Notes under the pieces: model-generated
Told to the model about the DNA's origin: nothing
Seen by the model: the letters and a program-made list of their open reading frames with translations, nothing else
Databases searched by the model: none
Part shown: in pieces, positions 1,893 through 38,700 of the stretch
Numbering within the stretch: the stretch's first letter is position 1
Layout: every line of letters starts with the position of its first letter
Origin: Deltaproteobacteria bacterium
Lineage (GTDB): Bacteria; Desulfobacterota; RBG-13-43-22
DNA: 64,000 nt
Assembly: GCA_016219225.1 (NCBI GenBank)
Contig: JACRBX010000048.1
Location: 11,952-75,951, forward strand
Direction: 5' to 3'
Position numbers and translations under genes: made by a program

Positions 1893-2060
1893 AAAAAGCG
1901 AATGTCGAATATCGAATACTGAATAATAAATGTCGAAGGAAGGAAAATACAACCCACTTCATGATTTGAAATTCGATGTTCGATTTTTAATATTCGTTTT
2001 TTCGTTCTAAACTCTCATGCCTCCAGAGGCACCACGAAGCATGAAAATTTCTTTCGCCAG
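1893..2060. repeat. Intergenic repeat tract: 7-mer CGAATAT-type tandem array plus the core module TCATGCC..GGCACCACGAAGCATGAAAAT (2015-2048)
   Basis: Direct reading: tcgaatatcgaatactgaataataaatgtcgaagg followed by catgcctccagaggcaccacgaagcatgaaaat. The same module recurs at 17716, 18111, 22305, 32263 and 38599. Confidence 0.7.
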
Positions 2061-2186
2061 ACATCGATTTTAAGGGTTTTTTTACTTACTTTGAGCTTTC
2101 AGCTTTGAGCTATTTTCGCAATAAAATACCCGGGGGCCCGCTAAGGAAAAGCGGCGCCTCGCCAGGTCTTCATCAGTGGAGGGACC

Positions 2187-2381
2187 ATGCCTGACAGTTC
2201 GCAGATCCAGAAAACGCGGAAAAAATCGCCATTTAAAAAGACCCCACCGGAATCCCGGCAGGAGCCCCTTTCTCAGGAAAAACAGAGAAAGCTCAAAGAA
2301 TTGGATGATTATATCGAAAGTGTCCTCCAGGAGGCCGGTGAAGATTTCTTAGATCGTTTCAAACAGGTCGAAGGGGAATAG
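2187..2381 (+). CDS. Pup/UBact-like small protein modifier candidate (64 aa, C-terminus ...FKQVEGE)
   Basis: SD GGAGGGACC precedes the ATG. Disordered basic N-terminus, then an acidic helix LKELDDYIESVLQEAGEDFLDRFKQVEGE that resembles the Pup ligase-binding region and ends in Glu. The stop is 2 nt before the PafA-like gene. Confidence 0.55.
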   Translation: MPDSSQIQKTRKKSPFKKTPPESRQEPLSQEKQRKLKELDDYIESVLQEAGEDFLDRFKQVEGE

Positions 2382-2382
2382 G

Positions 2383-3858
2383 TTGCGTCACAGGATCTTC
2401 GGAACCGAAAACGAATATGCCCCTTTTGACCATAACCAGACGGCAACGCCCCAGGTCCCGCTATCCAACAGGGGTTGGCCCGAGGATCAAGGGGAATTGG
2501 CCGCCGGCCTGATCGAAGGCCTTCAGGGGTGCCAATACCCTCGGGCCGGAGAATTTTTGGGCAACGGTGGCCGATTGTACCTGGATCGGGGCGGGCACCC
2601 GGAATACGCTACCCCGGAGTGCCGCACGGTAAAAGACCTGGTGGCTCATGAAAAGGCCGGGGACGTCCTTATCCAGGCACTGGTGGAGAAGGTGCGCTCC
2701 CAACAACCCCACAACCGCCTCCATGTATACAAGAACAATTGCGATTCTTATGGCCACACCTATGGCGGCCATGAGAATTACCTGGTCACTTCCCTGGCCA
2801 TGAAGCATCTCGATCGTCTCGTCCCTTTCCTGGTTACCCGCCAGATCTATACCGGTACGGGCAAGATCATGACTTCCCCGCTCTGCAGCCTTCCGGCCTT
2901 CCAAATCAGCCAGCGGGCCGATTTTTTCGACGCAACCTTTTCCGACCGGACCTCCGAGACCCGGGGCATCATCAACATCCGTAAACGCGAAATAGCCCGG
3001 CCCGGAGAAAACCAGCGCCTGCATATCATCGTGGGCGACAGCAACATGTCCCAACCGGCCCTGGCCCTCAAAATAGGAACCACGGCCCTGATATTGCGGC
3101 TGTTGGAAGAAGAGGCCCTGGGCGAGGTCTTGGCCCTGGGCGCACCGGCCCAGGCCATCAAAGCGATCTCCCGTTCTTTGAAGGCCCCGGTGGCCATCCG
3201 GCGTCAAGGGCGGACCTTGCAGTACACGGCTTTAGAGGTCCAATCCCTGTATTTGGAAAAAGCCCTTCGATTCTGTGCCCGTCCGGGCACCGACCCCGAA
3301 GAGATCCGCTGGCTGGGCCTCTGGGAATATGTTTTGAAGGCCCTTAAATTTTTGGAAATCTCTCAGTCCGAGATGCTTCTTATCAACGACCCGGGAGAAT
3401 TGAAAAGAAAAATCGACTGGGTACTTAAACTCTGGCTCCTCAGCCGCTCCCGGTCCAAGGGTGCCGATGATCGGCAATTGAAACTCCTGGATCTGATATA
3501 CCACGACCTGGACCCTGCCTCCGGGCTCTTTGAACGTTGTCAGGCCCTGGGGCTGGTAGACCGGCTTGTGGACGAGGAGCGCATCCGACAGGCCCGGCGC
3601 AATCCTCCTGCGGACACCCGGGCCAGGCTGCGGGGCCTGATCATACAAAAAGCTTTTCATCAAAACGTGGACGTCCAGGTGGAGAACTGGGAAAGCATCC
3701 AGGTCCGGGCCCATCATCGTCGGGCCGGGATAAACCACCCTTTCCGCAACCTTACCACCGCGATGAACAAACTGGGGATCCGTCTGGATGACCCCTTCCA
3801 GGGAGAAAATCCCCAGGCCCTGGAGGAACTGGAACAATTTATTTTGGCCTGGGGCTGA
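2383..3858 (+). CDS. Pup-ligase/deamidase family protein (PafA/Dop-like, carboxylate-amine ligase)
   Basis: Motifs shared with PafA/Dop: N-terminal RIFGTENEY, GGRLYLDRGGHPEYATPEC, GGHENYL, LVPFLVTRQI, RLHIIVGDSNMS, DTRARLRG. No long Dop-loop insertion is apparent. Confidence 0.85.
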   Translation: MRHRIFGTENEYAPFDHNQTATPQVPLSNRGWPEDQGELAAGLIEGLQGCQYPRAGEFLGNGGRLYLDRGGHPEYATPECRTVKDLVAHEKAGDVLIQALVEKVRSQQPHNRLHVYKNNCDSYGHTYGGHENYLVTSLAMKHLDRLVPFLVTRQIYTGTGKIMTSPLCSLPAFQISQRADFFDATFSDRTSETRGIINIRKREIARPGENQRLHIIVGDSNMSQPALALKIGTTALILRLLEEEALGEVLALGAPAQAIKAISRSLKAPVAIRRQGRTLQYTALEVQSLYLEKALRFCARPGTDPEEIRWLGLWEYVLKALKFLEISQSEMLLINDPGELKRKIDWVLKLWLLSRSRSKGADDRQLKLLDLIYHDLDPASGLFERCQALGLVDRLVDEERIRQARRNPPADTRARLRGLIIQKAFHQNVDVQVENWESIQVRAHHRRAGINHPFRNLTTAMNKLGIRLDDPFQGENPQALEELEQFILAWG

Positions 3859-3864
3859 TAGACT

Positions 3865-4581: not shown

Positions 4582-4594
4582 CGGAGGAAGATCC

Positions 4595-4906
4595 ATGGAT
4601 ATCAAAACCGCGGCGGCGGAGTTTCACGGGGCCTGTCTGGCGATTCTGGATCAACCAGAACTCCCAGCAGAATTAGCCTACCGGATGCAGCGGATCATAG
4701 ACCGCTTCCTGCCGGTGGCGGATAAGATGTATCTCAAGACGGTAAAAGGCTTCCAAACCGTTTTGCAGTGCACCCAGCAGGCCAGGACCATTACAGATCA
4801 CCTGCCAGCCGGCCGGTACCTTTTCTATCGGCAGGTTACGGATCTGGAAAATACCCTGGAGGAACTCCTCAAGGCGGCCTACGCATTTCGCATCAAGGCC
4901 GGCTGA
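4595..4906 (+). CDS. Hypothetical protein (103 aa)
   Basis: ORF 14 nt after the previous stop on the same strand; no recognisable motif. Confidence 0.45.
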   Translation: MDIKTAAAEFHGACLAILDQPELPAELAYRMQRIIDRFLPVADKMYLKTVKGFQTVLQCTQQARTITDHLPAGRYLFYRQVTDLENTLEELLKAAYAFRIKAG

Positions 4907-5067
4907 AATGAACCTGCCTTGGATTGTGGAGTTCGGAGTTCAAAGGAGTTTTCGATTGAAGAGTTAAGATCTAAGATATACGGATTTGATTTTGACTTCC
5001 TTCGACATTCATCATTCGTTATTCGATATTCGATATTCGCCTGTTTTATAAGGGTTCAAGAGAAAAT

Positions 5068-10796: not shown

Positions 10797-10949
10797 GGTT
10801 CATCTCCTTATTCGATATTTTTATTTTTCGCTGGTGTGCCACAGGAGGTATGGATATTTGATAATAATAGGTTAATCCTGGTCGGAAATCAAGAATTTTA
10901 AGGGCCGGTGCCAGGTCTGGCCCCGGCCCTCCGAAACCGGTCGAATCCT

Positions 10950-14876: not shown

Positions 14877-16411
14877 TTCCTGTTTCCGTTTTTCGAAAAA
14901 CGGGCTTTAGCGGTAAAAGGGTTCTGCCAGGGATCCGGCGGTTCAAGGCGAAAGAGGATTACCCGGCCAAAAACGATCCGGTAGAGCCGAAAACTTTTCT
15001 GTTTGATACATCCCCAAAAAACGCCGCTCTGGTAAAAAGCCTGCTCGGATAAAAAGAAGAAAGCAAAAAACGGAAACCCGAGCCTCGGTTTCTTGCGCAG
15101 GTATTCTACCAGGGTCGGGAAGACTATCAAGGCCGTCCCAATCAGCGCCCAATCGCTGAAGGCCCATAATAAAACAAGGATAAGCAGCAGGTAATAGCGG
15201 ATCAGATGATAAGTCAGAAAAAAAATCAAGTGGAAATGGCCTCTGACTACGGCCTCAAAAACCAGACCCCAGCCCGGAATTTGATCCATTTTCCCGCCTA
15301 AACGAATCCGTCGGTAAATAGTCTCGGCTGCCAGGATTCCGATGGCTGGGACCAGCCAGTAAACCGAGCGCGTCCAAAGGGCCGTCAGAACCGCCAGAAA
15401 GAGGCCCAGTCCGCCGGCCTGCCAGGGAAATCGCTTGGAAATCTTGGGGTACCGTTCATACAAGAGGGCCTCGGAGGTACCATAATCGAACCGGCGCCGG
15501 TACCCGGCCATAAAACGGTTGCGGTGTTTATGCCGGACAACGCCTTTGGGAACATAGGTCAGATGATGTCCTGCAGCCATCAGTTTCCAGCATAAATCCA
15601 CGTCCTCGCCCACTCTCAGATCTGCATCCAGCCCGCCGTGCCGATTAAGGGCCTCTTTGCGGACGAGCAAGTTACAGGTGGGGACATAAAAAGGGGAGTG
15701 CTCCCCTTGACCCATGATCGGACGGGGTCCCATATCCAGAGCCGAGCAGACTGCTTCATAACGGTCCATCCGGCTTTCCCGAAAAAAGCCCTCCACCCGC
15801 CCGCCCACCAGGACCAGCCGAGGGTCTTGAAAATAGGGGACCAGATCCTCCAACCACCCCGGATCGGCCAGACAATCGCTATCGATAAAGGCGATGATTT
15901 CTCCCCGGGCCGCGGCCGTGCCGGCATTGCGGGCCGCTGCCGGCCCTTGATTACGGGAAAGGGTAATCAACTGGACCCCGAAGCCTTTAACCACCGCCGC
16001 GCTATCATCCTTTGAAGCGTCATCCACCACGATGATTTCCAGTTTGGACCGGGGATAGCGGAGGGCGGACAACGATTCGAGGCAGGCCGCGATCTCGGCC
16101 GCCCGGTTATAGACCGGAATGATGATAGTGACGAAGGGATAAAAAGGTGCTGGAGAGGGGGCCCATTCCAGAAGGCCGGCCTGATGGAGCCTATCCAGAA
16201 AAGCCCTTTCGGCCGGCCGATTAACGAGGTCTTGATTCTGATCCTGCAAGATACCCTGCTCCAATTTCTTTAGCATCTCAAAGGCCGGGCCATTGACTTT
16301 GATGAGCCTCAACGGATTTTCCTGAATAACCATTCCCCCTTCGGCCGCCGGTTGGAGTCGCACCCCGGACTTCAGGGAATAAGTGCCTTGAAAAGCTGAG
16401 CCGCTCATCAT
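14864..16411 (-). CDS. mftF: Mycofactocin-system-type family 2 glycosyltransferase (MftF-like) with a C-terminal membrane region
   Basis: GT2 core IIIPVYNRAAEI...VVDDASKDDS...IDSDC...GGRV. The start ATG at 16411 overlaps the mftC TGA (ATGATGA), and the gene's 3' end overlaps the larB start by 13 nt. Confidence 0.7.
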   Translation of the reverse strand: MMSGSAFQGTYSLKSGVRLQPAAEGGMVIQENPLRLIKVNGPAFEMLKKLEQGILQDQNQDLVNRPAERAFLDRLHQAGLLEWAPSPAPFYPFVTIIIPVYNRAAEIAACLESLSALRYPRSKLEIIVVDDASKDDSAAVVKGFGVQLITLSRNQGPAAARNAGTAAARGEIIAFIDSDCLADPGWLEDLVPYFQDPRLVLVGGRVEGFFRESRMDRYEAVCSALDMGPRPIMGQGEHSPFYVPTCNLLVRKEALNRHGGLDADLRVGEDVDLCWKLMAAGHHLTYVPKGVVRHKHRNRFMAGYRRRFDYGTSEALLYERYPKISKRFPWQAGGLGLFLAVLTALWTRSVYWLVPAIGILAAETIYRRIRLGGKMDQIPGWGLVFEAVVRGHFHLIFFLTYHLIRYYLLLILVLLWAFSDWALIGTALIVFPTLVEYLRKKPRLGFPFFAFFFLSEQAFYQSGVFWGCIKQKSFRLYRIVFGRVILFRLEPPDPWQNPFTAKARFSKNGNRNWKR

Positions 16412-17439
16412 CCTGTCCCGGCCATCAGAGGTTTGATCTGGACACAGTTCACCAGACATCCGGGGTCCGGCAATCCCAGCCTTCTTTGGGTGTGGTAGGC
16501 AATGGCCGGACAGCCTCCGTGGCACAGGTCGAAGCGGTAACAGCTTTCACAGGATTGTATTTCCAGTCCACGAAAAGACTGAAACACGGCAGAGGTCTCC
16601 CAAATGAAACCGAAGTCTTCCTCCGGCAGCCTTCCGGCCAGAAACTCCAGCTCCTGTAAAAAGGCACAGGGGTAAACCTGGCCCTCGGGAGACAGACAAC
16701 AGGTGAGCTTGCCGGCCCCGCACATGTTTAATCCTAAAGAGCGCCGTTCTTCAGAGGTGACCGAAAAAAAGGAATCTCCGGTGGAAACAGCCAGGTGACG
16801 GCCCAGCCAAAGAGAGAAATCGGCCATTTGCTCAGGGGTGACATTCAGCCCGGACCAGAACCGTTTTCCTCGGCCGGAAGGTCTGAACCGCGAGACCCGC
16901 AGCTTAGCCCCGTAAGCGGCTGCCAGGCCGACCAGCTTGTCTAATTCCGGAAAACTGTATCGGGTCAGGACCGTGTTGATGCTGACCTCGATGTCTCGTC
17001 GGCGTAAACAGTCCAGGGCCTTGAGCACCCGCTGGAAACTCCCCGGACCCCGAACAGCATCATTGGAAGAGGCCGTGGCCCCATCCAGACTGACCTGGAT
17101 ATAGACCAGCCGATGATCCAATCTCCGGGCCGTCTCTTCGTCGATCAAGGTGCCGTTGGTACTGATGCAGGTGACTATCCCTTTTTGATGGGCATAATCC
17201 ATTAAGTCCAAAAAATCCGGGCGCAGGAATGGTTCCCCGCCCCCGATATTCACTTGAAAAACCTTGAGTCCGGCCAACTGATCGATGATTCCGAACCCCT
17301 GGTCCGTGGAAAGCTCGCCCGGTTGTTTTTGCCCGGAATCGGAAAGACAGTGCAGACAACTCAAATTACAGGCATAAGTCACCTCCCAGGTGACGTTTAC
17401 CGGGGCCGAAAGGCCCATCTCAACAAACCGATTCCCCAT
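16408..17439 (-). CDS. mftC: Mycofactocin maturase radical SAM/SPASM enzyme MftC
   Basis: CNLSCLHC cluster motif; FQVNIGGGEPFLRPDF, VQVSLDGATASSNDAVRGPGSF, LRVSRFRPSGRG, GLNMCGAG and C-terminal SPASM cysteines align closely with MftC. Confidence 0.9.
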   Translation of the reverse strand: MGNRFVEMGLSAPVNVTWEVTYACNLSCLHCLSDSGQKQPGELSTDQGFGIIDQLAGLKVFQVNIGGGEPFLRPDFLDLMDYAHQKGIVTCISTNGTLIDEETARRLDHRLVYIQVSLDGATASSNDAVRGPGSFQRVLKALDCLRRRDIEVSINTVLTRYSFPELDKLVGLAAAYGAKLRVSRFRPSGRGKRFWSGLNVTPEQMADFSLWLGRHLAVSTGDSFFSVTSEERRSLGLNMCGAGKLTCCLSPEGQVYPCAFLQELEFLAGRLPEEDFGFIWETSAVFQSFRGLEIQSCESCYRFDLCHGGCPAIAYHTQRRLGLPDPGCLVNCVQIKPLMAGTG

Positions 17440-17701
17440 GAATGAGACCTTTTTCTTCCAGAAGTTGTATCAGTTGCCTTAGCTGCCGGTCGATCCATTC
17501 CCGGGGCCGGGTGCTTCCGGCCTGCAGCGCTTCCGCCCAGTCATTGATCCGCGTTCTCCCCTCAAAAAGACCTTCGTCGAGAAACTCTCCGCTGGCCAGA
17601 AAATAAAGCCGGGGCCCCCGGTAGTTATAAAAAAGAAGGCCGAATTTTTCCCGGCGCACCTGAACCCCGACCTCTAAATGATAAATCCGATTGGATTCCA
17701 T
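17420..17701 (-). CDS. mftB: Mycofactocin chaperone MftB (PqqD-family RRE protein)
   Basis: 93 aa; the motif EKFGLLFYNYRGPRLYFLAS matches the MftB FGALxYHxxxRRLxFL signature. Confidence 0.8.
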   Translation of the reverse strand: MESNRIYHLEVGVQVRREKFGLLFYNYRGPRLYFLASGEFLDEGLFEGRTRINDWAEALQAGSTRPREWIDRQLRQLIQLLEEKGLIHGESVC

Positions 17702-17715
17702 ATTAAATCCTCAAA

Positions 17716-17746
17716 GCCCCAGGGGGCACCACGAAACATGAAAAAG
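17716..17746. repeat. Intergenic repeat module copy (GGCACCACGAAACATGAAAAA) between mftA and mftB, with 8-mer tandem tail to 17940
   Basis: agccccagggggcaccacgaaacatgaaaaagg, followed by gattcaagg and ggaatcct arrays. Confidence 0.7.
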
Positions 17747-17942
17747 GATTCAAGGGGTCCAGGGGCCAAGGATTCAAGTGAAAGGCGTGGAATTTAAAAC
17801 CCTGCGATTCCCCGGAGGGGAACCTTTTCTATAGCTCGACGAATCGGCTCCCAAAAGGGGGCCTCTTCGGAAGCTCGGCAGAGCCGAGCGGGTCGAGCGG
17901 CTGAACCCTCGAATCCTGGAATCCTGGAACCCTATTTTCGAA

Positions 17943-18077
17943 CTAATATATCCCGCAAATGCCGTCTACGGCCAGTTCTTCAAGAACAAAATCCTCGAGG
18001 ATCTTCGGCTGTTCCTGAATCTGCTCATCGGCCCTGATTTCTATGGTTTTGTTTTCCATTTCCAGTACTGAGATCAT
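17943..18077 (-). CDS. mftA: Mycofactocin precursor peptide MftA (44 aa, ends VDGICGIY)
   Basis: C-terminus EELAVDGICGIY versus canonical IDGMCGVY. Start chosen at MISV... because GGAGAAATACC precedes that ATG; the longer tracked ORF is treated as an upstream extension. Confidence 0.75.
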   Translation of the reverse strand: MISVLEMENKTIEIRADEQIQEQPKILEDFVLEELAVDGICGIY

Positions 18078-18110
18078 GGTATTTCTCCTTTGCTGTTTTC
18101 GTATTAAACC

Positions 18111-18155
18111 GCCATGCCCCGCCTTTTGGGGCATGGCACCACGAAGCATGAAAAT
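18111..18155. repeat. Intergenic repeat module copy (hairpin gccatgcccc..ggggcatggc + ACCACGAAGCATGAAAAT) with a partial second copy and GAACTCC 7-mer array to 18285
   Basis: Direct reading; located between the SDR gene and mftA. Confidence 0.7.
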
Positions 18156-18291
18156 AGGCTCCTTGGAAGACGGATGCTATTTTCGAACTAAACCGTCATG
18201 CCCCTGGACGCCAAGAAGCATAAAAAAATTTTCTCCGAACTCCGAACTCTAAACTCCTAACTCCGAACGACGAACACCGAACGGCATTTTC

Positions 18292-19101
18292 TTACGGCGC
18301 CTTGGCTGTCCAGCCGCCATCAACGGTAATCATGTTGCCGGTGATGCAGCGGGCTTCGTCGGTCACCAGCCAGCGTACAGCCCGGCCGATATCCTCGGGG
18401 GAGACCTCGGGGTCTTTGATCATGTGGCCGGCAAAAAATTGTTGCTTGGCCTCTTCCCCCTCCAGTCCGAAGTAAGCGGCTATTCCTTGCATCATGGGGG
18501 TCCAGACCGTGCCGGGACAGACCACATTGCAGCGGATATTGTGATCGGCCACCTCCATGGCTATTGATTTATTGAGACCGATGATCCCGTGTTTGGCCGC
18601 ACAATAATGGCCGCCCATGCCAAAGCCGCGCTGGCCGCCCACTGAAGAAATGCTGACCACGTTGCCACTATGCTGCTCAATCATATGGGGGAGAACATAC
18701 CGGCAGCATAAAAAGGTTCCCTTCAGATGGGTGTCCAGGACCTCGTCCCAGATTTCTTCGTCCATTTCGGCTATAGCCACCATGGAGGTGTTGCCGGCAT
18801 TATTGACCAGGATGTCGATCCGGCCGAAGACCTCCATCACCTGTTCCACCATGGCTTCCACGTCGCCCCTCTGCCGGACATCACACTTGAGTCCCATGGC
18901 CCGGCGCCCCATAGCCTGGAGGCCGGCCACAGCCTCGTTCATTGATTCTTCAGTGGACATATCGTAGGGGATGGTATCCATGTTGGCACAGATGTCGGCC
19001 ACGGCGATATGGGCCCCTTCTTCGGCCAGACAGCGGGCAATCGCCAAACCGTTGCCCCTGGCTCCTCCGGTGACGATGGCCACCTTACCTTCCAGTTTCA
19101 T
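18292..19101 (-). CDS. Mycofactocin-coupled short-chain dehydrogenase/reductase (SDR subfamily)
   Basis: N-terminus KVAIVTGGARGNGLAIARCLAEEGAHIAVADIC matches the mycofactocin-associated SDR signature (TGAARGQG...DIC); immediately upstream of mftA. Confidence 0.7.
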   Translation of the reverse strand: MKLEGKVAIVTGGARGNGLAIARCLAEEGAHIAVADICANMDTIPYDMSTEESMNEAVAGLQAMGRRAMGLKCDVRQRGDVEAMVEQVMEVFGRIDILVNNAGNTSMVAIAEMDEEIWDEVLDTHLKGTFLCCRYVLPHMIEQHSGNVVSISSVGGQRGFGMGGHYCAAKHGIIGLNKSIAMEVADHNIRCNVVCPGTVWTPMMQGIAAYFGLEGEEAKQQFFAGHMIKDPEVSPEDIGRAVRWLVTDEARCITGNMITVDGGWTAKAP

Positions 19102-19161
19102 GCATTGGCTCCTTTCATTGCATTCAGCAGTTTATATCATCCAAATTCCAAATTATCCGGT

Positions 19162-19473
19162 TTAAAATTTTTGCAGCAGTTCCTGGAGCATGCGGATATC
19201 CTCGGAGGCCACACTGGCGCCATACTCAGCCACCTGAAAATCCAGCTCCTGCTGCAAGGAAGACAAAATCATCAAGGCATCCAGGTAATAGACCAGCTGC
19301 GGATTATGTTTAAAATCATCCTGATACCGTTCTAACAGGCTGTTGACCTCCAGCGCTTTCAACCGGTCGAAATAAGTCGCCTGATCGATCCGGTCCCGCA
19401 GGAAGCCGTCCATGAGATCGATGGCCTGATGGGCCGCCTTAACCACAGGTTCATGAATCGGATGGGGCATCAT
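19162..19473 (-). CDS. Hypothetical protein (103 aa)
   Basis: ORF overlapping the next gene by 4 nt. Confidence 0.4.
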   Translation of the reverse strand: MMPHPIHEPVVKAAHQAIDLMDGFLRDRIDQATYFDRLKALEVNSLLERYQDDFKHNPQLVYYLDALMILSSLQQELDFQVAEYGASVASEDIRMLQELLQKF

Positions 19474-19799
19474 ATAGGCCTTTCGGGTGAAGATTCAAGT
19501 CCATAACGGGCCAGGCTGGCCTCAGCCCTGGGGGTGATGATAAAACGGATGACGGGGCCGCTATCCGGTCGATCCACCCGCTCCCGCTCGACCAGCCCCA
19601 GGCGAAGCAGCGTCATTAACCGGTTCTTCACCCCCTGGGAGGAGATATTCAGGATCCGGCCGAAGGTATGGCAGTGAAACTCCCCAGGTTTGCGGTGGTG
19701 GCAGGTGCCGGTACAATAAGTGCCGCCTTCTTTTTTCAAAATATTCAGGATCTCGATCAAATCTGCACTTAATGGCGGCCCGGCCATGGCCATATTCAT
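19470..19799 (-). CDS. Putative Cys/His-containing winged-helix DNA-binding protein
   Basis: HTH-like segment RILNISSQGVKNRLMTLLRLGLVERE and a CTGTCHHRKPGEFHCH motif. Confidence 0.4.
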   Translation of the reverse strand: MNMAMAGPPLSADLIEILNILKKEGGTYCTGTCHHRKPGEFHCHTFGRILNISSQGVKNRLMTLLRLGLVERERVDRPDSGPVIRFIITPRAEASLARYGLESSPERPI

Positions 19800-20158
19800 C
19801 AGGTCATCCGGACTACAAACGTTTTGGTCTTATGGATCAATTGGTCCAACTCAGCGGTGAGATCTTTGGTGATCTCCAGAGACTTCGCCTCGTCACCAGC
19901 GGTCATGCTGTCCTTCAGCTCCAAGGCCTTTTCCTTCATGTCCCAGGCGGTTTCCCCGGCCTTAACGGTTTTCAGGTAGGCCATTTTAATTATTTTTTCA
20001 AGTTCAGCACTCCGTTCCCCTAATTGAGAGGTGATCAGCAAAGCGGCTTCCTGGGATAATCCCTGGGAGTTGGCTTGAATGGCCTGGAATACCTCCAGCA
20101 TTTCACGAGTCAAGGTAGGGCCTTTACCCACCACGTTCGGTCTGCTCTTTTCCGTCAT
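19799..20158 (-). CDS. Hypothetical protein (119 aa)
   Basis: ORF directly abutting the adjacent genes on the same strand. Confidence 0.4.
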   Translation of the reverse strand: MTEKSRPNVVGKGPTLTREMLEVFQAIQANSQGLSQEAALLITSQLGERSAELEKIIKMAYLKTVKAGETAWDMKEKALELKDSMTAGDEAKSLEITKDLTAELDQLIHKTKTFVVRMT

Positions 20159-20161
20159 TGA

Positions 20162-21088
20162 TTAACTGCTCCTTTCCATGGCTTCTTGATAGCCTTGTAA
20201 CTTTGGCTTATGATGATCACGACCCATTTCCCAGGGCCGCTCTGACACCACTACTTTTTCACGTGGCGGCAATTGCAAAAGCAGCCGGTCGGCAATCCCC
20301 ATCATGGCTTTGGCCGACAAAGACTCCGGATTTTTATAGACAATGGGTATACCGCTGTCGGCCGCTTCGGAATATTGTCCATCCAGAGGGATCCCCCCTA
20401 AAAAAGGGATTTCGAAAGTTTTGGCCAGCCGCTCGCCGCGGTCTTTTCCAAAAAAGTGTTCGATCCGTCCACAATCCGGACATTGGTAGTGGTTCATATT
20501 TTCAATGAGTCCCAGAATGGGCGCCTTCAATTCCCGGGCGGCATTAATGGCCTTGCTGCAGACAATGGTGGAGATCTCCTGGGGTGTGGTGACCACGATC
20601 ATGCCGTCCAGGTCCGGTATGGACTTCATGATGGTGATCGGTTCATCCCCTGTCCCCGGCGGCAGGTCCACGAATAAAAAATCCATTTCATACCACTTGA
20701 TGGAACTCAAAAACTGCCTGAGCACCCGGGCCTTATATTGTCCACGCCACATGATGGGGGTCATCTCTGTCGGCCAGATCAAGGCCACAGACATAACCTT
20801 CAACCCCTGGGCGGTTATGACCGGATCGATTCCGTGAGAGCCGTGCAGGATATCCCGCATCTCAGTCCGGATGCCGACCATCTTGGGAACGCTCGGACCA
20901 TGGACGTCGGCATCGAAAATCCCCACGACCAGATCTTTCTTGCGAACGGCGGCTGCCAGGTTGACCGTCACACTGGTCTTGCCCACGCCGCCTTTTCCGC
21001 TGATAATGGCGATTTTATAATTGACCTTGGCCATGGCATCGCGAATAGGGCCATGGTGATGATGCGGCTGGTGATCCATTGAATCCAT
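20162..21088 (-). CDS. apbC: Mrp/NBP35 (ApbC) family Fe-S cluster carrier ATPase
   Basis: Walker A IAIISGKGGVGKTSV, a CPDCG motif and an N-terminal His-rich stretch. Confidence 0.85.
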   Translation of the reverse strand: MDSMDHQPHHHHGPIRDAMAKVNYKIAIISGKGGVGKTSVTVNLAAAVRKKDLVVGIFDADVHGPSVPKMVGIRTEMRDILHGSHGIDPVITAQGLKVMSVALIWPTEMTPIMWRGQYKARVLRQFLSSIKWYEMDFLFVDLPPGTGDEPITIMKSIPDLDGMIVVTTPQEISTIVCSKAINAARELKAPILGLIENMNHYQCPDCGRIEHFFGKDRGERLAKTFEIPFLGGIPLDGQYSEAADSGIPIVYKNPESLSAKAMMGIADRLLLQLPPREKVVVSERPWEMGRDHHKPKLQGYQEAMERSS

Positions 21089-21184
21089 CAGGTTAACCTC
21101 TCCTTCGAGTGATATTTCTTAAATTCAAAACGCGCAATAGGCGCTTAAATTGCCATTCAAATAGGTTTGGCTGGTGTTTATCCG

Positions 21185-22294
21185 CTATCCTGCGGAAAAA
21201 AATTCAAAAGTCCGGCTTCCGAGTCCTGATTGCTCGGCGTAGGCCAGCAGGTGTTCGGGGGTCTGGCCGGTGATGGCCTTAATTTTATCTTCCCCCTTGT
21301 CCAGGACCTTCAGGTCCTGGGCGATGGATCCTGGTATTCCCGGACTCCGAAGGATCATCTGGGTCGTGGCCCAATCGACAGCCACGGGATCACTGGATGC
21401 GATAATGCCGAGATCCGGCACGAACGGGATATCGGAAAAAGGGAATTCATCGGGCTGGGGGGTGACGGAACTCAGAAAATTGATAAAGAAGGCCTTCCCC
21501 CGCAGTTGGCTGAGGACCGTCTGGGCCGCCTCGATGACACATTCCTGAAAGATTGGCAAGCCCTCCGGCTGGATATGAATCGCCCGGCTTGGACAGCTTA
21601 CAAAACACCCCAGACAACGGTTGCAGACCCGGGGGTCGAATGTTACCCGGCCGGGTTCACCGGCCATGGCCTTGGTGGGACAAAAGGACAGACAAATGCC
21701 GCAGTGATCACATTTTTCGGCCTCGTACTCGATTTGCAGACAGGCATGGACCTTGAGTTTTCCGGAAGCGGTCAGAAAGCCCAGTCCGAGGTTGTAAAGG
21801 GCGCCGGCAATCCCGAGCAGCGGATGGGCGGTAATGTGTGAAACAACGATCAGATTACCGGTGTCGGTTAGCAAGCTGCCGATGTCGATACCGGCTAAAT
21901 GCCGGCCATCGGCCGGCCAGAATTTACCTTCTTCGTTGGTATAGCCCCCTGATTGCAGCAATTGGTTATGAAAGGTCTCTCCGCTGCTGAACCCCTGCAG
22001 TAAAGCCCCATCAACCCAACTGTAGCCATCAAAGCGCGAGCCCTTATAAAGGCTGCAACCGTCGGTCAACAGGGGCTTGGCACCCTGGGACCGGGTTTTT
22101 TCAAACAAGGTGCTGAAGATGACCGGCGGAAGATAATGACCGTAGCCCATTTCGCTTAGATTAAACTTAATGGCCAGGCTGATCTCCGGGACCACCAGGG
22201 AGGCCAATTCTTCCAGGCTCAGCAGGGTGTCGATCTTGCTGATGAGATTTTTTTCACAGGTTTCTGATCGGCCTTTAATCCAGTAGACATTCAT
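21185..22294 (-). CDS. DUF362 domain protein with 2x[4Fe-4S] ferredoxin domain
   Basis: CDHCGICLSFCP and CNRCLGCFVSCP motifs embedded in a DUF362-like fold; 369 aa. Confidence 0.7.
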   Translation of the reverse strand: MNVYWIKGRSETCEKNLISKIDTLLSLEELASLVVPEISLAIKFNLSEMGYGHYLPPVIFSTLFEKTRSQGAKPLLTDGCSLYKGSRFDGYSWVDGALLQGFSSGETFHNQLLQSGGYTNEEGKFWPADGRHLAGIDIGSLLTDTGNLIVVSHITAHPLLGIAGALYNLGLGFLTASGKLKVHACLQIEYEAEKCDHCGICLSFCPTKAMAGEPGRVTFDPRVCNRCLGCFVSCPSRAIHIQPEGLPIFQECVIEAAQTVLSQLRGKAFFINFLSSVTPQPDEFPFSDIPFVPDLGIIASSDPVAVDWATTQMILRSPGIPGSIAQDLKVLDKGEDKIKAITGQTPEHLLAYAEQSGLGSRTFEFFSAG

Positions 22295-22304
22295 ACTAAG
22301 CCCT

Positions 22305-22375
22305 CATGCCCTTTTAAGGCACCATAAAGAATGAAAATGGTTTTCTCCGAACTCCGAACTCTTAACTCCGAACTT
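22305..22375. repeat. Intergenic repeat module copy (tcatgccc..GGCACCATAAAGAATGAAAAT) plus GAACTCC 7-mer array
   Basis: Begins 10 nt upstream of the DUF362 start codon; its reverse complement supplies GAGGG as a likely SD. Confidence 0.65.
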
Positions 22376-22467
22376 TATTGTTGTACTGAAATTTTTCTGA
22401 AAAGGGTTTCATCCCCGGGGATGCGGACAGGGTCTGAACCCCGCCCGCATCCCTTATCACCTAAAGA

Positions 22468-23826
22468 TTAGATGGTTGGGTCAAAATTTTTCCAATCCCC
22501 GAGCCACTTGTCGAGGGGTTCGCGGTTGAAGGGAAACTCCCGGGCGATGTGATGGTTCTTGAATACATGCCGCATGGGCGTAACGGTCATCGGAATCTTG
22601 CGGATCTGCCACTTGGCGATATTCTCCGGATTGAGCTCCGGTTCATATTCGATCAATTCGTAATTCATGGTCCCCATGCCGATCTTCTCGGCCGCCTTGA
22701 GCTGAATTCGAGGCGTAAAGGCGTTGACCGCTTTAAATTTGTCTTCGCCCGGTTTGAGTCCCAGTTCCTCGGCCCTGGAGTTGGGGCCGATGGGGGCCTT
22801 GTCGATCATGTCGCAGACGGCCGAATCGATGGCCACCGGGTCTTTGGAGGCGAACACCCCCACATCCGGCGCCACATAGGTGCCGTTCCAGGGGAAGCAG
22901 TCACACTCCGGGGCAATGTCGAAGGCATAGGCCATGTAACCGATCTTGCCCGGTTTAAAGGTTTTGATACAGCCCAGGGCCGCGTCCGACATGGCGATTT
23001 GGGCCAGCGGGAAATAATCATCCCGAAAACCGATACCTTCCATCCCGGTAAACATACAGGTCACCTGGCAGGAATAGCACAGGCAGCACTTGGCATAGTC
23101 GATCACCACCCCATCGGGTTTGACGGTGATGGCCTCATCCGGGCAACTGTCTTCGCACATCTTGCTGAAGGGACACTCGGTGCCCTTACAGGAAGTCCGG
23201 TTGACCTTGGGATAGCCGATGGCTTCTTCCGGATCGCCCCAAAAGGCCAGGTGCGTCTGGTACTTGCCCCGTTTGGACTGGGCCCCGATGCCGAAGTTTT
23301 TGATGCATCCGCCATAGGCGGTAATGGGATGTCCCTTGGCGTGGGCCAGGTTAATGATGGCATCCGCTTCGTAGATCCCGCGGCCGATATAGGTCTCTTT
23401 TAAGATGTTGCCTTCGGGCAGTTCCACCCGGAGGTCGTCTTCACCGAAAAAACCATCGGAGATGATGAAAGGCGCGCCCAGGCTGGCCCAGTTCAAACCA
23501 TGACGATTGGCGCCTTCCTGTTCCAACTGCCCGGTGCAGCGGTTGTTATAGAGATGATAGGTCAGCGTGGTGGTGTCGGTGACAAAGGGCCGACCGCCGC
23601 AGGCCTTCACTTCTTCCACGATGGCGGCCACAAATTCCGGTCGCAGACAGGCGGTTCGATTCCATTCGCCGCAATGAACCTTTACCGCGACGCTGTCGTC
23701 CTTTTCAATGCACTGGTCAAGGCCGGCGGCATAAAAAAGATCCTTGGCCTTGCAGATGGTGCTTTCCGTCCAGTTCGTCGCGCCGGAGGCCGCGAACCAG
23801 ACCTTGGAGGATTTATTTTTGGACAT
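22468..23826 (-). CDS. DUF362 domain protein with 4Fe-4S ferredoxin domain (paralogue)
   Basis: CKGTECPFSKMCEDSCP and CCLCYSCQVTC motifs; 452 aa. Confidence 0.7.
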   Translation of the reverse strand: MSKNKSSKVWFAASGATNWTESTICKAKDLFYAAGLDQCIEKDDSVAVKVHCGEWNRTACLRPEFVAAIVEEVKACGGRPFVTDTTTLTYHLYNNRCTGQLEQEGANRHGLNWASLGAPFIISDGFFGEDDLRVELPEGNILKETYIGRGIYEADAIINLAHAKGHPITAYGGCIKNFGIGAQSKRGKYQTHLAFWGDPEEAIGYPKVNRTSCKGTECPFSKMCEDSCPDEAITVKPDGVVIDYAKCCLCYSCQVTCMFTGMEGIGFRDDYFPLAQIAMSDAALGCIKTFKPGKIGYMAYAFDIAPECDCFPWNGTYVAPDVGVFASKDPVAIDSAVCDMIDKAPIGPNSRAEELGLKPGEDKFKAVNAFTPRIQLKAAEKIGMGTMNYELIEYEPELNPENIAKWQIRKIPMTVTPMRHVFKNHHIAREFPFNREPLDKWLGDWKNFDPTI

Positions 23827-30460: not shown

Positions 30461-30466
30461 TACGTT

Positions 30467-32238: not shown

Positions 32239-32262
32239 CATAGGTATCCTCCTTGACTGTAT

Positions 32263-32370
32263 TAAGCCTTCATGCCCCATGGGCAAACCACAAATAATGA
32301 AATATCGAACATCGGATGTCGAAGGAAGGCAAGAACAAATTATTTCATGATTCGAAATTCGATATTCAAA
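32263..32370. repeat. Intergenic repeat module copy plus CGAATAT-type 7-mer array
   Basis: taagccttcatgccccatgggcaaaccacaaataatgaaatatcgaacatcggatgtcgaagg...ttcgaaattcgatattc. Confidence 0.65.
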
Positions 32371-32550
32371 GCGTCCAGGGGCCAGGGGTTCAAGGGGCAA
32401 GGTTTTTACACTTGCAACCTGCAACTTGAAACGTGTATCTTTCTTCTTTAACTCAACCCTGCCCCCTGATCCCCGACCCCTGAATCCTGATTCCGTTCTT
32501 CATGCGTGCAACCGCAACTTGAAACTTACAACTTGCAACTTTTTTTCTCA

Positions 32551-33579
32551 TCACGGATTAGGATTGGCTTTCAGCCAGTCCTGAAGGAATTTCAGGGATT
32601 CCTCTCCGGGCAATCCCAGCTTTTTCATGCTTTTCACATAATCATCCAGGATGGGTTTCATCTTCTGACCTGACAGGGCGACCTCTTCTTTGGAGATCTT
32701 AAAGACCTTCGCGCCTTTGGAAACCGCGAAATCGATGCCCTCCTTGTCGATATCGTCCCAGGCCAGGGCGGTTTTCTCGATCCATTCCTTACTGACCTGC
32801 TCCAAGGCCTTTTGAAATTCCGGCGGCAAAGCGGCCCACTTGGCTTTATTCATCACCACGCCCATGGCGTTGGTATAGCCGATACCGTCATTGATCTGCA
32901 CCCCCCGGAGCAGGTCGCCGAATTTCCACCCCTTCAGGCTTTCCACCGGCAGCAGGGAACCGGCGATGACGCCCCTCTGAAACCCTTCATAAGAGTCAGC
33001 CAGGGGGATGGAAACGGGTATGCCGCCCATGGCCGTAACGATCTTGGCCGTGTCACCGGCGCAGCGCACCTTGACCCCTTTCAGGTCATTGATAGAGGCC
33101 AACGGTTTCAGGGTCGCAAAATGTCCCGGGCTGGTGGTATAGAAATAAAGGATCTTGACGTCATCGTATTCCTTGGGCTTGAACTTTTCATACCAGGCGT
33201 TGAACATCCGGGTGCCCTGACGGGCGCTCTTCACCCCCAATGGAAGGTAGATGGCCTCCGTCAATGGGAAACGGCCGGCGTTATATTGCTGGGTAACCAT
33301 GCTGATATCCGCTATGCCCTTGACAGCCGCCTCATAGGCCTGATTGGCCGGGACCAGGGTGCCCCCCGGAAGATAGGTGATCTTAACCTTTCCATTGGTG
33401 CGCTTTTCCACTTCCTTGCACCACTGATCCGCCAGGACAGCCATCTTGTGGACCGGCGGGAAAAAGTTGGCATACTTGAAGCGAAATTCCTTTTCTTCAG
33501 AACGGGCCGGACTACCGGCAGCCAAAACAAAAAACATAGCCAAACTGCAAATCAAACTAACCATTCCAAGTTTTTTCAT
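32551..33579 (-). CDS. dctP: TRAP transporter substrate-binding protein DctP
   Basis: Signal peptide plus DctP-family periplasmic domain; 342 aa. Confidence 0.8.
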   Translation of the reverse strand: MKKLGMVSLICSLAMFFVLAAGSPARSEEKEFRFKYANFFPPVHKMAVLADQWCKEVEKRTNGKVKITYLPGGTLVPANQAYEAAVKGIADISMVTQQYNAGRFPLTEAIYLPLGVKSARQGTRMFNAWYEKFKPKEYDDVKILYFYTTSPGHFATLKPLASINDLKGVKVRCAGDTAKIVTAMGGIPVSIPLADSYEGFQRGVIAGSLLPVESLKGWKFGDLLRGVQINDGIGYTNAMGVVMNKAKWAALPPEFQKALEQVSKEWIEKTALAWDDIDKEGIDFAVSKGAKVFKISKEEVALSGQKMKPILDDYVKSMKKLGLPGEESLKFLQDWLKANPNP

Positions 33580-33724
33580 AATGTCCTCCCTTTATAAAAA
33601 ATCTGATTTTTCAAAACTCCCAAAATTTCTTCCGGTTTTTTTTCCTCTTCGAATAAAGCCCATCGCCTCCTTCGTCTACAAAAATGGATTGCTTTTAAAT
33701 TCCGAAATCCGAAATTGAAACGCC

Positions 33725-35377: not shown

Positions 35378-35391
35378 ATTCCACCTCCTGA

Positions 35392-36846: not shown

Positions 36847-36912
36847 GTTCATCATCCTCCTTGGCCTATTGCCGGCAGGAGTGCTTCGGGCCTTCATAAA
36901 GAGAAACTTCCC

Positions 36913-38403
36913 TTATAGCTTGGGAGGAAAGGCCGGAAGTTCATCGAATAAAGGGTGTCCTTCCCGGTTCTCCACCCTGGCCGCCCGCTTAGCCGCGGCT
37001 TTGTAGCGGGGAAAATCGGCCAACTGCAATATGGACATCTTCTGGGCCTCGAGCGAACCCTCGGCATGAATGGTCAGCACATCTTCATAGGAAGAAGTCA
37101 GGTCCCTGACCAGCTTGACCATGCGCAGCCGTTCTTCCGTGGGGACACCGGCCTTGCCACCCAGATATTTGTCCAGAAGGTCATGAGTCTCGGGATTGAA
37201 AAAGTCTTTGGCCGAGGGACAGGTGGCCACGATCCCGCCGGCGATGTCCTGGATATATTTGGTGGCTTCATGCCAGTTATTGGCGAACTGATATTTGCAG
37301 ATATTGGCGATCATCGGATTGGGGTAAACAAAATCCGAATCCTCCTCCTTAATGCAATGTTCCACTGCCGCCCGGCCCAGGGTCTCGATCATCTCCGTAT
37401 ACATGACCAGCCAGGTGAGTTTTTCACGGATGTGGGATACCTTTTCAATGCCGTTGTACTCGGCCATCAGGGCCGCGGCACCGGTAAAAAGCTCCAGCTC
37501 CATGGCCTTGTAGGTCTCGGCGCTTAGACGATGGAAATTGGCGAACATATAGGCCACCTGACCGGCAAATTCCCATTCGCCTTTCAGAAAGAGGCGCTCG
37601 TTAGGGATAAAGACATCATCAAAAATGATGGTGGCGTCATTGATAAAGACGCTGCCGGCAATGTGGTGATCGAATAAACTCACCCCTTCGCTCACCTCCG
37701 GCTCGGCCGAAATAAGGGTGATGCCTTTGGCATTGAGGGGTGCCCCGAAGGCGAGGGCATAAGCCTTGTCATCCTCTTTCATGGCCCGGCAGGGGGCGAT
37801 CAACACTTCATTGCATAAGGGGGCCTGGCTGATATGGGTCTTGGCTCCGCGGACGATGACGCCGTCTTCCCGTTCTTCGACGATCCGCAGATAATAGTCC
37901 TGATGTCCTTTCTGCTGTGAGGGGCGCAGACTCCGATCGCCCTTGACATCGGTCAAACCCATGGCAAAGGATAGATCGTTTTTTTGCAGATGCCGGCGGT
38001 AGGCCTCCACATTGGCGGCGTAATGGGTGCCATATTTTTTATCGATCCTGCGGCTGACTACGGTCACCGAATTCAGGCCGTCCTTGGCCACGAACTTGGC
38101 CCCGGAGGGTTTTCCGAAACTAACCCTGGCCCAAAGTTTGACCATCTCCCGGAGCCGGAAAAGGTCCTCTTGGGTCCGCTGAGGCATGAGGGCGAAACTG
38201 ACCCTTTCGCCGTCTTCATCCAATTCCGTGAGAAGGTCCTGGTACCTGGGGTCCTGATTGAGGACATAATCCATGGCCACCCAATCGCGGCAGATCTTCA
38301 GAATCGGGTGTTCGGTCACATCGGGAATTTTTTCGCCGTTTAAGTACATGACCCGGCCGTCTTTCAGGCTGTTGATGTATTCTTGTGGTGTTTTAAGTGC
38401 CAT
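36913..38403 (-). CDS. 4-hydroxybutyryl-CoA dehydratase/vinylacetyl-CoA isomerase (AbfD)/HpaB-family flavoenzyme
   Basis: Family-typical length and sequence; start set at MALKTPQEY with AGGAGA upstream. Confidence 0.7.
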   Translation of the reverse strand: MALKTPQEYINSLKDGRVMYLNGEKIPDVTEHPILKICRDWVAMDYVLNQDPRYQDLLTELDEDGERVSFALMPQRTQEDLFRLREMVKLWARVSFGKPSGAKFVAKDGLNSVTVVSRRIDKKYGTHYAANVEAYRRHLQKNDLSFAMGLTDVKGDRSLRPSQQKGHQDYYLRIVEEREDGVIVRGAKTHISQAPLCNEVLIAPCRAMKEDDKAYALAFGAPLNAKGITLISAEPEVSEGVSLFDHHIAGSVFINDATIIFDDVFIPNERLFLKGEWEFAGQVAYMFANFHRLSAETYKAMELELFTGAAALMAEYNGIEKVSHIREKLTWLVMYTEMIETLGRAAVEHCIKEEDSDFVYPNPMIANICKYQFANNWHEATKYIQDIAGGIVATCPSAKDFFNPETHDLLDKYLGGKAGVPTEERLRMVKLVRDLTSSYEDVLTIHAEGSLEAQKMSILQLADFPRYKAAAKRAARVENREGHPLFDELPAFPPKL

Positions 38404-38598
38404 TTTTATTCTCCTTTGAATTTTATAGTTAATCAGTTGTGAACGATTTGGAAAAAGTTGAAAAATGCCCTGCCGGGTTTCCCCTTCAGGCCCAACCGGT
38501 CCTTCGAAGGGCCTTTTAGAGACCCTGCCCATATCAACTACTGAACGGTCAGTCTATCATTTAGGCAAAAAAAACAGTGCCCCTATTGCTTTGTTCTT

Positions 38599-38700
38599 CT
38601 AAGCCCTCATCCCCTAGGGGCACCACGAATCAAATAATGAATGTCGAAGTAAGGTTGGTTTTGAACCCGCAACCCATAACTCGTAACCCGTAACGCTATC
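38599..38700. repeat. Intergenic repeat module copy plus TAACTCG 7-mer array
   Basis: ctaagccctcatcccctaggggcaccacgaatcaaataatgaatgtcgaagtaagg ... cataactcgtaacccgtaacg. Confidence 0.65.

Follow-up and report, generated by a model that had tools for sequence, protein, structure and literature searches.

The stretch of DNA analysed here (the window) comprises 64,000 nucleotides of contig JACRBX010000048.1 (positions 11,952 to 75,951, forward strand; GenBank assembly GCA_016219225.1) from a deltaproteobacterium of the Desulfobacterota lineage RBG-13-43-22. Among its genes is a mycofactocin (mft) cluster on the minus strand (16408-18077), which contains mftA (44 amino acids, ending in …VDGICGIY), mftB, the radical-SAM gene mftC and a glycosyltransferase gene; the genome is Thermodesulfobacteriota-like. 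Units of a dispersed repeat lie within the mft, TRAP-transporter and DUF362 operons. We describe the architecture of this repeat, its distribution in other genomes and its fate at orthologous sites, and suggest that it probably represents a new family of modular, palindromic, non-coding intergenic repeats, selfish and non-autonomous, of the REP/BIME/NIME/BOX kind. Two traits set it apart: a three-motif architecture and a consensus that is nearly identical across phyla.

Detection of the Repeat in the Window

A search with the 21-nucleotide core GGCACCACGAAGCATGAAAAT, allowing up to three mismatches, returned four matches on the + strand (2028, 17725, 18135 and 22318), where 0.00 were expected from 100 shuffles. 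Looser searches combined with reading of the sequence gave further core positions at 18207, 32288 and 38619 and a remnant at 57424. An nhmmer profile made from related copies located window copies at 1994-2049, 17692-17749, 18091-18158, 18172-18220, 22287-22340 and 38592-38629. The same six were found by an unfiltered covariance-model scan (E-values from 4e-13 to 3e-3), with the core always on the + strand; the training set of the model did not include the copies at 17688-17744 and 38585-38636, and both were still recovered. The copy at 32257-32305 is degenerate (covariance-model E-value of 1.4) and was recognised mainly by eye. An opposite-strand candidate at 10818-10876 (E-value of 0.47 with the covariance model) was too weak and was not counted. 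By profile search, the window thus holds six solid copies, one weak copy and one remnant, all on the + strand.

The original prediction had listed six copies in one orientation, and all six are present where they had been reported, on the + strand. Two copies lie beyond that list, a decayed tandem copy (18172-18227) and a core remnant (57421-57446). What had been seen, however, was just the head of a longer unit.

Anatomy of the Unit

Read on the + strand of the window, the unit consists of A1, a hairpin, A2', a stretch that we call cargo, and A3. A1 has the sequence TATTTTCGTAyTAA, A2' (CCACGAAnnATGAAAAT) is its imperfect inverse, and A3 is a direct repeat of A1. The head, from A1 through A2', has the consensus cTATTTTCGTAyTAA-aCCcT-CATGCC-(stem-loop)-GGCr-CCACGAA-nn-ATGAAAAT, which is based on 105 aligned copies and 66 copies outside the search pattern used to collect related sequences. 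The elements ATTTTCG, CATGCC, CCACGAA and ATGAAAAT are each 80-99% conserved, also in the copies that were not selected by the pattern. The information content falls to zero directly outside T-ATTTTCG and GAAAA-T, and the ends form terminal inverted repeats (TATTTTCgt / (c)atGAAAATa) with 8-11 complementary bases.

The terminal A3 emerged from an alignment of seven copies of a related genome that have a long right flank in common: they form a repeat of about 330 nt that ends in a second TATTTTCGAACTAA, and in three loci of one genome this composite unit is bordered by unique DNA on both sides. The arrangement holds more widely. The motif TATTTTCGnAnTAA (up to two mismatches) follows on the same strand within 400 nt to the right in 75 of the 110 copies that are last in their cluster, and in reverse orientation in five; to the left it accompanies only 2 of 109 cluster-first copies. 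With up to one mismatch, the A motif occurs 126 times in 0.9 Mb, compared to about five times expected by chance. Of these occurrences, 51 form the left arm of a head, 62 lie on its right, two on its left and one on the other strand; the remaining 10 are solo motifs, most of which come after a decayed right arm and cargo.

Units have a median length of 103 nt (range 68-340). The cargo (0-270 nt) is non-coding and is drawn from a limited stock of modules, namely tandem heptamers (CTCCGAA, CTTGCAA, AACCCGT), a GGATTCAAGG-type palindrome and other hairpins, which are sometimes nested one in another. The type of cargo goes with the head on its left and not with the next head on its right.

The foot of the hairpin (CATGCC / GGCr) is present in more than 90% of copies, while the tip, approximately 3 to 19 nt between GCC and GGC, varies in both sequence and length. 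Two or three pairs inside GCC/GGC covary (82 of 102 paired, versus a mean of 56 and a maximum of 67 after shuffling), which bears out the hairpin postulated in the original prediction. At one inner pair, for example, we counted CG 54 times, GC 14, AU 8, UA 6 and UG 4. The outer stem, TATTTTCGTACT with AGCATGAAAATA, is complementary and almost invariant, and for this reason it says nothing for or against folding.

Several known types of feature were considered for the element. A small open reading frame (ORF) inside it is rejected because the length of the hairpin varies out of frame, and an intrinsic terminator because no T run follows the hairpin on either strand; a terminator scan matched one decayed copy, weakly. 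In the whole window, a search of Rfam at the gathering threshold returned only a cobalamin riboswitch, and in the region 17650-18300 even a cutoff of E ≤ 10 gave chance-level matches only (SAM-VI and CRISPR direct repeats, E ≥ 2.5). Neither a tRNA nor a tmRNA gene was found in the window. A literature search by the sequences of the element and its companion modules found no paper on it; the element is absent from the RepRanger survey of REPs (PMC12306157), and the hairpin and core motifs are absent from the Geobacter genome paper, supplementary alignments included (PMC2700814).

Distribution across Genomes

Using the exact 20-mer GGCACCACGAARCATGAAAA, we scanned 185,579 species genomes and found at least 120 matching stretches in at least 47 species-level assemblies. 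The loci examined are the 120 listed stretches, as 8-kb pieces of each genome, plus two more loci (122 in all). The 120 listed loci together with the window contain 189 copies. At least 26 of the loci come from one related genome by exact 20-mer matches. The core is abundant in the rest of the relative's genome, and in relatives the copies lie between called genes, so that neither of the two findings named in the original prediction as fatal to it was made.

Among the matches listed, the labels cover at least eight phyla (Thermodesulfobacteriota, Chloroflexota, Acidobacteriota, Bacillota, Planctomycetota, Latescibacterota, Schekmanbacteria and Nitrospirota), and the suggestion that the element is lineage-specific therefore has to be given up. 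Many of these matches are labelled Thermodesulfobacteriota or "delta proteobacterium"; Ca. Acetocimmeria (Bacillota) accounts for 14 loci, and the others include Dehalococcoidia/Chloroflexi, with the closed 4.4 Mb chromosome OZ244722.1, Planctomycetota, with Ca. Scalindua, and Thermodesulfovibrionia. The matching assemblies listed are all environmental metagenome-assembled genomes (MAGs) or metagenome bins, and the GC content of the loci ranges from 40 to 70%.

There is only one pair of cross-assembly duplicates among the loci. L019 (QZJR01, labelled Deltaproteobacteria) and L069 (JAGVGM01, Thermodesulfovibrionia) are 99.8% identical over 4.7 kb, which means that one bin or one label is wrong. 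The left arm, which lies outside the search pattern, carries lineage signatures: TAGTAGTGyTC in Acetocimmeria, and GATTTTCACGGGAGTTGCC in an Acidobacteria MAG. Such signatures argue against contamination and for separate amplification in each lineage.

Copies at Orthologous Sites

Two contigs are syntenic with positions 15680-23549 of the window: CAZVHO010000003.1, to which both L105 and L121 belong, and a contig from ENA (L122). Their genes are 92-98% identical to those of the window. The same three gaps hold heads in all three genomes, yet the heads themselves are very different. Upstream of mftA, the hairpin of the copy is long in the window and short in the relatives. The gap between mftA and mftB measures 241 nt in the window versus approximately 121 nt in the relatives, owing to nested modules. 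Upstream of the DUF362 gene there are three heads in the relatives, and one head plus debris in the window. In the DUF362 copy that is common to them, the 20 nt with the Shine-Dalgarno sequence and start codon are identical, while the distal 30 nt differ at seven positions and CCACGAA has decayed to CCATAAA or CCGTAAA. These differences between close relatives, together with the intergenic multi-copy occurrence, the covariation of the hairpin and the tandem arrays described below, support the earlier proposal of a dispersed repeat of REP or miniature inverted-repeat transposable element (MITE) character, as opposed to chance similarity.

Genomic Context and Orientation

For a census of context we used crude gene calls (ORFs of at least 100 amino acids). 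About 89% of the 189 copies lie outside such ORFs. Both flanking genes are on the reverse-complement strand in 39 cases and on the core strand in 50, and they are divergent in 22 and convergent in 19. The proteins encoded beside the copies are unrelated and ordinary (NtrC-type regulators, ABC ATPases, SDRs, CoA ligases, DNA polymerase III alpha, AcrB and others), and clustering of 791 ORFs produced generic families, with none enriched next to copies. Nor was there a link with the replication strand, the GC skew of the core strand being positive in 50 loci and negative in 46.

Adjacent copies are often only 0-30 nt apart and tend to point the same way (60 pairs in the same orientation versus eight in opposite orientation); up to four units abut directly in tandem. 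Copies more than 0.8 kb apart show nine same and seven opposite orientations, which makes the uniform orientation seen in the window a local feature or a chance result. The single orientation originally noted thus stands for the window itself, where it is a weak signal (p-value of about 0.03-0.06 at 5-6 independent sites), and does not extend over long range in other genomes.

Units in the Window

The head of unit 1 (1997-2049, +) consists of A1 at 1997-2010 (TTTTTTCGTTCTAA), a hairpin with the stem GCCTC/GAGGC, and the A2' core at 2028-2049. Cargo (2050-2110) and a terminal A3 direct repeat (TATTTTCGCAATAA, 2111-2124) complete the unit at 2124. This copy had been counted among those lying 1-35 nt upstream of minus-strand start codons. 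It sits instead between two + strand genes, encoding an AMP-binding enzyme (74-1891) and a Pup-ligase-family protein (2383-3858). The minus-strand ORF at 1627-1962 overlaps the AMP-binding gene and has no Pfam match; it is the type of spurious call that misled the earlier reading. The + strand ORF 2383-3858 matches the Pup-ligase family with an E-value of 5e-112 and stands beside the acetyl-CoA-synthetase-like gene, in a genome whose closest relatives in this analysis are labelled Thermodesulfobacteriota.

Units 2 to 4 surround mftA, which is bracketed by A motifs of the family. The unit 2 head (17692-17749, +) has a degenerate A1 (TTCCATATTAA) that includes the minus-strand start codon of mftB (17699-17701). 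Its cargo (17750-17932) is a GGATTCAAGG-type palindrome with a second palindromic module nested at approximately 17804-17901, and its terminal A3 (TATTTTCGAACTAA, 17933-17946) contains, in the reverse complement, the mftA stop codon (17943-17945). A relative of this palindrome, 93% identical to 17741-17797, occurs by itself at 50702-50797 (+), between two genes, flanked by GAAAAAAA and CTATTAC; as it has no hairpin head, cargo modules also occur alone. The unit 3 head (18091-18158, +) is a long-hairpin variant (GCCATGCCCC / GGGGCATGGC), with the mftA start codon (18077) 13 nt downstream. The segment 18159-18227 (+) is made up of the unit 3 cargo (18159-18177), of a type common to L021, L047 and L054, and the head of unit 4, a decayed tandem copy whose A1 (18178-18191, +) doubles as the A3 of unit 3. 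The unit 4 cargo (18228-18297, +) consists of CTCCGAA heptamers followed by an A3-like CATTTTCTTACGGC (18284-18297) over the stop codon of a short-chain dehydrogenase gene (18292-18294).

The unit 5 head (22287-22340, +) has a decayed core; in reverse complement it provides the DUF362 gene with its Shine-Dalgarno sequence (22301-22305) and its start codon (22292-22294), and it is orthologous to copies in L121 and L122. It is followed by cargo of CTCCGAA heptamers and a degenerate A3 (TATTGTTGTACTGAA, 22376-22390), the two spanning 22341-22390 (+). The degenerate unit 6 head (32257-32305, +) lies upstream of DctQ, whose start codon (approximately 32241) is about 16-22 nt away. Its cargo (32306-32553, +) is a mosaic of repeat modules, and the final A3-like TTTTTTCTCATCA (32541-32553) overlaps the DctP stop codon (32551-32553). 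A 67-nt repeat is found both to the left of head 1 (1915-1981) and to the right of head 6 (32301-32367), with 76% identity; its position on opposite sides of the two heads indicates that modules are shuffled relative to the head.

The unit 7 head (38585-38640, +) has kept its hairpin and CCACGAA, and its distal core is decayed. From here to the HpaB-like start codon at 38532, downstream on the gene strand, it is approximately 55-60 nt, so that the proposed 1-35 nt spacing fails here too. The region 38641-38710 (+) contains AACCCGT heptamers and a degenerate A3 (TATCTTCGTATTCC, 38697-38710) directly past the DctM stop codon. An A3, intact or decayed, therefore closes all seven window copies. 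The remnant at 57421-57556 (+) retains a decayed A2' core (GGGCACTATGTATCATGAAAAA) followed by cargo-type modules; its left arm is missing.

Tandem heptamers of the CTCCGAA, CTTGCAA and AACCCGT types occupy 18228-18283, 22341-22375, 32401-32541, 38656-38696 and 57475-57515. The heptamer changes concertedly among close relatives (CTCCGAA in the window versus CCTTGAA in L105). The cobalamin riboswitch (57702-57902, minus strand, 115 bits) is separated by about 470 nt (57230-57700) from the next minus-strand ORF (55580-57229). This gap is largely made of the same mosaic repeat modules and puts an unusual distance between the riboswitch and its gene.

Reuse as Gene Signals

Read on the strand of the neighbouring genes, the unit has the form TTAG…(cargo)…hairpin…GAGGGTTTAGTAcG, and one C-to-T change creates an ATG 6 nt past GAGGG. 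An ATG at that exact position opens a long ORF in approximately seven independent copies, including those at the DUF362 gene, at mftB and in L050, L072, L083 and L107. At the DUF362 gene, GAGGG lies 6 nt ahead of the ATG and this is kept in two relatives, in agreement with the Shine-Dalgarno role originally assigned to the element there. At mftB the reverse complement reads GAGGA, 6 nt, ATG. The mftA stop codon falls inside A3, and the dehydrogenase and DctP stop codons overlap decayed A3 motifs. Units in the window constitute whole intercistronic spacers. We think it likely that parts of units have been taken over as Shine-Dalgarno sequences and start codons (DUF362, mftB) and as a stop codon (mftA), and that this is a by-product and not the reason for which the family exists.

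Interpretation

The case for a selfish repeat family is that copies occur at unrelated sites, in both orientations and in arrays, that their number changes between close relatives, that individual copies decay while the consensus is stable, and that lineages have subfamilies. Copies arise by amplification within each genome, since each lineage has its own subfamily. Tandem arrays in the same orientation build up, and individual sites then decay neutrally. What keeps the consensus constant is probably recognition by a putative trans-acting protein: only copies that retain the A motifs and the hairpin foot would be recognised and then copied or moved. The maintained hairpin with its free tip, the lack of flanking duplications and the conservation of unpaired bases beside the stem would suit an enzyme working on a folded single strand (HUH/Y1 type, as for REPs) or a site-specific recombinase better than DDE cut-and-paste, a suggestion that we make with low confidence.

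Not all observations sit well with this interpretation, and those that speak against it are gathered here. The usual signature of a transposon is absent, in that there is no flanking duplication. A1 and A3 of the same unit are identical at 11.7 of 14 positions, compared to 12.3 of 14 for different units; being no more alike within a unit than across units, they are not target-site duplications. Past a single T, no conserved or matching flank surrounds the copies. No pair of filled and empty sites with sharp boundaries was found, so that we infer mobility from differences in copy number and do not see it directly. No Y1/RAYT, Tn3-family or other transposase is linked to copies in the 122 loci, a weak negative given pieces of 8 kb. 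Neither 2.9 million viral contigs nor the PLSDB plasmids gave a match that would account for the spread across phyla. The taxon labels were taken from MAG records, and one pair of them conflicts. One pair of loci runs counter to neutral decay: in L020 and L062, whose genes are about 85% identical, the right arm, cargo and A3 differ by little more than the gain or loss of one heptamer and are better conserved than the neighbouring genes, while the left arm is disrupted. Finally, two observations hint at constraint on the transcript. Of the two strands, the reverse complement gives the more stable fold (-22.3 kcal/mol, z = -4.3, versus -14.7 kcal/mol), and 59% of the coding bases nearby are encoded on the core strand (p-value = 0.008), a mild bias.

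The searches behind these negatives were of several kinds. With IS200 TnpA and E. coli RAYT as phmmer queries against 3,714 ORFs from all the loci, we obtained only one ordinary IS200 with end hairpins of its own. ORFs of 880-1070 amino acids in the loci included no Tn3-family transposase, the large ORFs being housekeeping genes. Among the loci we found no insertion sequence that shares these ends and could be the parent; the ORFs between inverted copies encode TetR, AIR-synthase-like, aldolase and similar proteins. Of the traits of a MITE derived from a DDE transposon, terminal inverted repeats are present and target-site duplications are missing. IS200/IS605-derived palindrome-associated elements have two different subterminal hairpins, at the left and right ends, and insert next to a fixed target of 4-5 nt; the units described here have a single hairpin each and lack a conserved flank. 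The right arm, GGGGCACC … GAAAATA, resembles a Tn21-type terminal repeat; plasmid BLAST gave no match, and we do not rely on this likeness.

A different explanation, which we consider unlikely, is that the element is a cis-acting operon RNA, intercistronic or 5'-untranslated, in which hairpin and flanks control mRNA processing, stability or translation and A1, A2' and A3 form alternative pairings. The window itself fits this well: five of the six units span the gap between co-directional genes from stop to start, in the order stop, hairpin, GAGGG, ATG; A2' is able to pair with A1 or A3; the Shine-Dalgarno and start part is conserved in relatives; and the stronger fold (-22.3 kcal/mol, z = -4.3) belongs to the transcribed strand. 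An RNA of this kind might also account for the mild strand bias relative to genes, but across genomes that bias is opposite to the orientation in the window, and both gene orientations are common. Copy 1 has the other orientation relative to its genes, the neighbouring genes are unrelated, up to four units abut in arrays, and covariation is confined to the innermost pairs of the hairpin and does not involve the outer stem. No Rfam family matches even at E ≤ 10. At orthologous sites the core decays while the Shine-Dalgarno part stays. In view of this decay, the mixed gene orientations and the unrelated neighbours, a general function as a 5'-untranslated regulatory element, one of the roles originally envisaged, is not supported; mixed orientations, arrays and decay are at odds with the intercistronic RNA reading, which fits the window well.

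We regard it as quite unlikely that the units form a protein-binding array maintained by the host, in which the A motifs (forward, reverse, forward) and the foot bind a nucleoid or topology protein, as BIMEs do with IHF and gyrase. The A motif is sharply bounded, highly conserved and present three times per unit in a fixed arrangement, the consensus is common to several phyla, and there is neither a duplication signature nor a linked transposase. Against these points, individual copies decay and their number differs in close relatives, and the covarying hairpin tips imply folding and not recognition of a duplex. There is no candidate protein, and the distribution is patchy, with many copies in some MAGs, all of the listed assemblies being environmental MAGs or metagenome bins.

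A very unlikely idea is a novel folded-DNA recombination system, in which the palindromic head is the site, read via the A motifs and the CATGCC/GGCrCCACGAA foot, and cargo mini-cassettes are shuffled at A sites. Were this true, an integron-like logic would operate on non-coding DNA within ordinary operons, with a putative recombinase conserved across phyla. More speculative still is a variant in which the invariant hairpin-GGC-r-CCA would mimic a tRNA acceptor stem and draw RNase P or the CCA-adding enzyme to transcripts. In a stricter form of the recombination idea, to which we give a slender chance, the unit would follow the logic of integron attC sites, with exchangeable mini-cassettes that a putative recombinase inserts and shuffles. 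At the same slender odds, the reverse complement would present a simple A site first, and each cargo would end in a variable-tip palindrome whose 3' end is an A site. The element does resemble attC: it is an imperfect palindrome, about 55-65 nt long, in which the outer boxes and certain unpaired bases are conserved and the tip is variable, with one orientation per array and one site per cargo. A simple site is followed by repeated (cargo, palindrome) units in one orientation, the tip comes in different lengths, as does the variable terminal structure of attC, cargo of a given type reappears beside different neighbours, and each cargo type is tied to the head on one side only. Unlike attC, however, the element lacks the RYYYAAC/GTTRRRY core pair: the left arm has ACTAAAC (6/7), and the right arm contains no GTT core, that is, no GTTRRRY complementary to this motif. 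Moreover, no integrase or other recombinase was found in the 122 loci, the cargo is non-coding, and the units are located inside ordinary operons.

A sigma-54 promoter was suggested by the resemblance of the core (GGCAC-N6-GCAT) to -24/-12 elements and by the protein families of the loci, the commonest of which is that of sigma-54-dependent activators, with 22 proteins in 15 loci. It can be dismissed on spacing and direction: the GG-CACCACGAA-GC spacing is N9 and not the invariant N10, and the core points away from the adjacent genes at five of six window sites. Across the loci, the core and the gene on its right point the same way in 77 cases versus 61, and activators of this family are simply abundant in these lineages.

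If the selfish repeat family is confirmed in complete genomes, a unit of about 55 nt that recurs almost letter for letter, with its fixed three-motif build, in uncultured anaerobes labelled as at least eight phyla would point to widespread machinery that moves or copies hairpin DNA. There are practical consequences as well. Units that make up whole intergenic regions will seed spurious ORFs, such as the one at 1627-1962, and will break or mis-join metagenome assemblies. They can also give their neighbours ribosome-binding sites and start and stop codons, as in the mycofactocin genes.

Comparison with Known Repeat Families

As a rule, a short palindromic intergenic repeat is confined to one species or genus. 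Like REP, BIME and REPIN sequences, the present elements are short extragenic imperfect palindromes that occur in many clustered copies, with no flanking duplication and a covarying stem, and are co-transcribed with operons. They differ in the foot of the stem, which is CATG and not GTAG/CGTC (GTAG occurs only about 10 nt off, and in the SESX01 lineage alone), in a consensus that is not species-specific, and in their two arms, neither of which is a plain inverted copy of the other. A distinct perfect palindrome with a GTAG tag, of the classical REP form (GTAGGGGCGGGTTTAAAACCCGCCCCTAC), coexists with the element in relatives (L105, 6735-6765; L025; L031), and the window has a diverged version at approximately 22405-22445.

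The NIMEs of Neisseria, in which RS units are separated by dRS3, are likewise non-coding intergenic arrays where a hairpin separator alternates with a limited stock of variable repeats and copy number varies from strain to strain, and a dRS3-like module (GTCATTCCCGCGAAAGCGGGAATCC) also occurs separately in related loci. In our family the separator is another sequence of about 55 nt with conserved unpaired flanks, and a third, unpaired copy of the left motif closes the unit. NIMEs belong to one genus, whereas the present family spans many phyla, and no integrating phage or insertion sequence is known to act on it. The GTCATTCCCGCGAAAGCGGGAATCC-like modules in L072, L077, L119 and L075 resemble Neisseria dRS3, and the same 21-mer appears in a Neisseria paper. 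In L072 an IS110-family transposase gene (1780-2850) lies directly next to such a module (2940-3015); it was rejected as the mobiliser because it adjoins the dRS3-like module and not the element described here.

The nearest published match to the cargo-like modules (CTCCGAA, CTTGCAA) is found in the multicopy nucleotide sequences of Geobacter (Desulfuromonadia), among which the head is absent. These are intergenic families, paired tandem heptanucleotide repeats included, some with 4-5 tandem heptamers arranged as hairpins, that were described in one genus and proposed to be regulator binding sites (PMC2700814). The BOX elements of S. pneumoniae (boxA, variable boxB, boxC) are also intergenic and have a similar overall plan, with a conserved head, a variable middle that often consists of sub-repeats in tandem, and a short conserved tail whose sequence is complementary to a portion of the head. 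Their sequences are unrelated to those described here, where the middle is drawn from several unrelated families of modules and the elements are found in many phyla.

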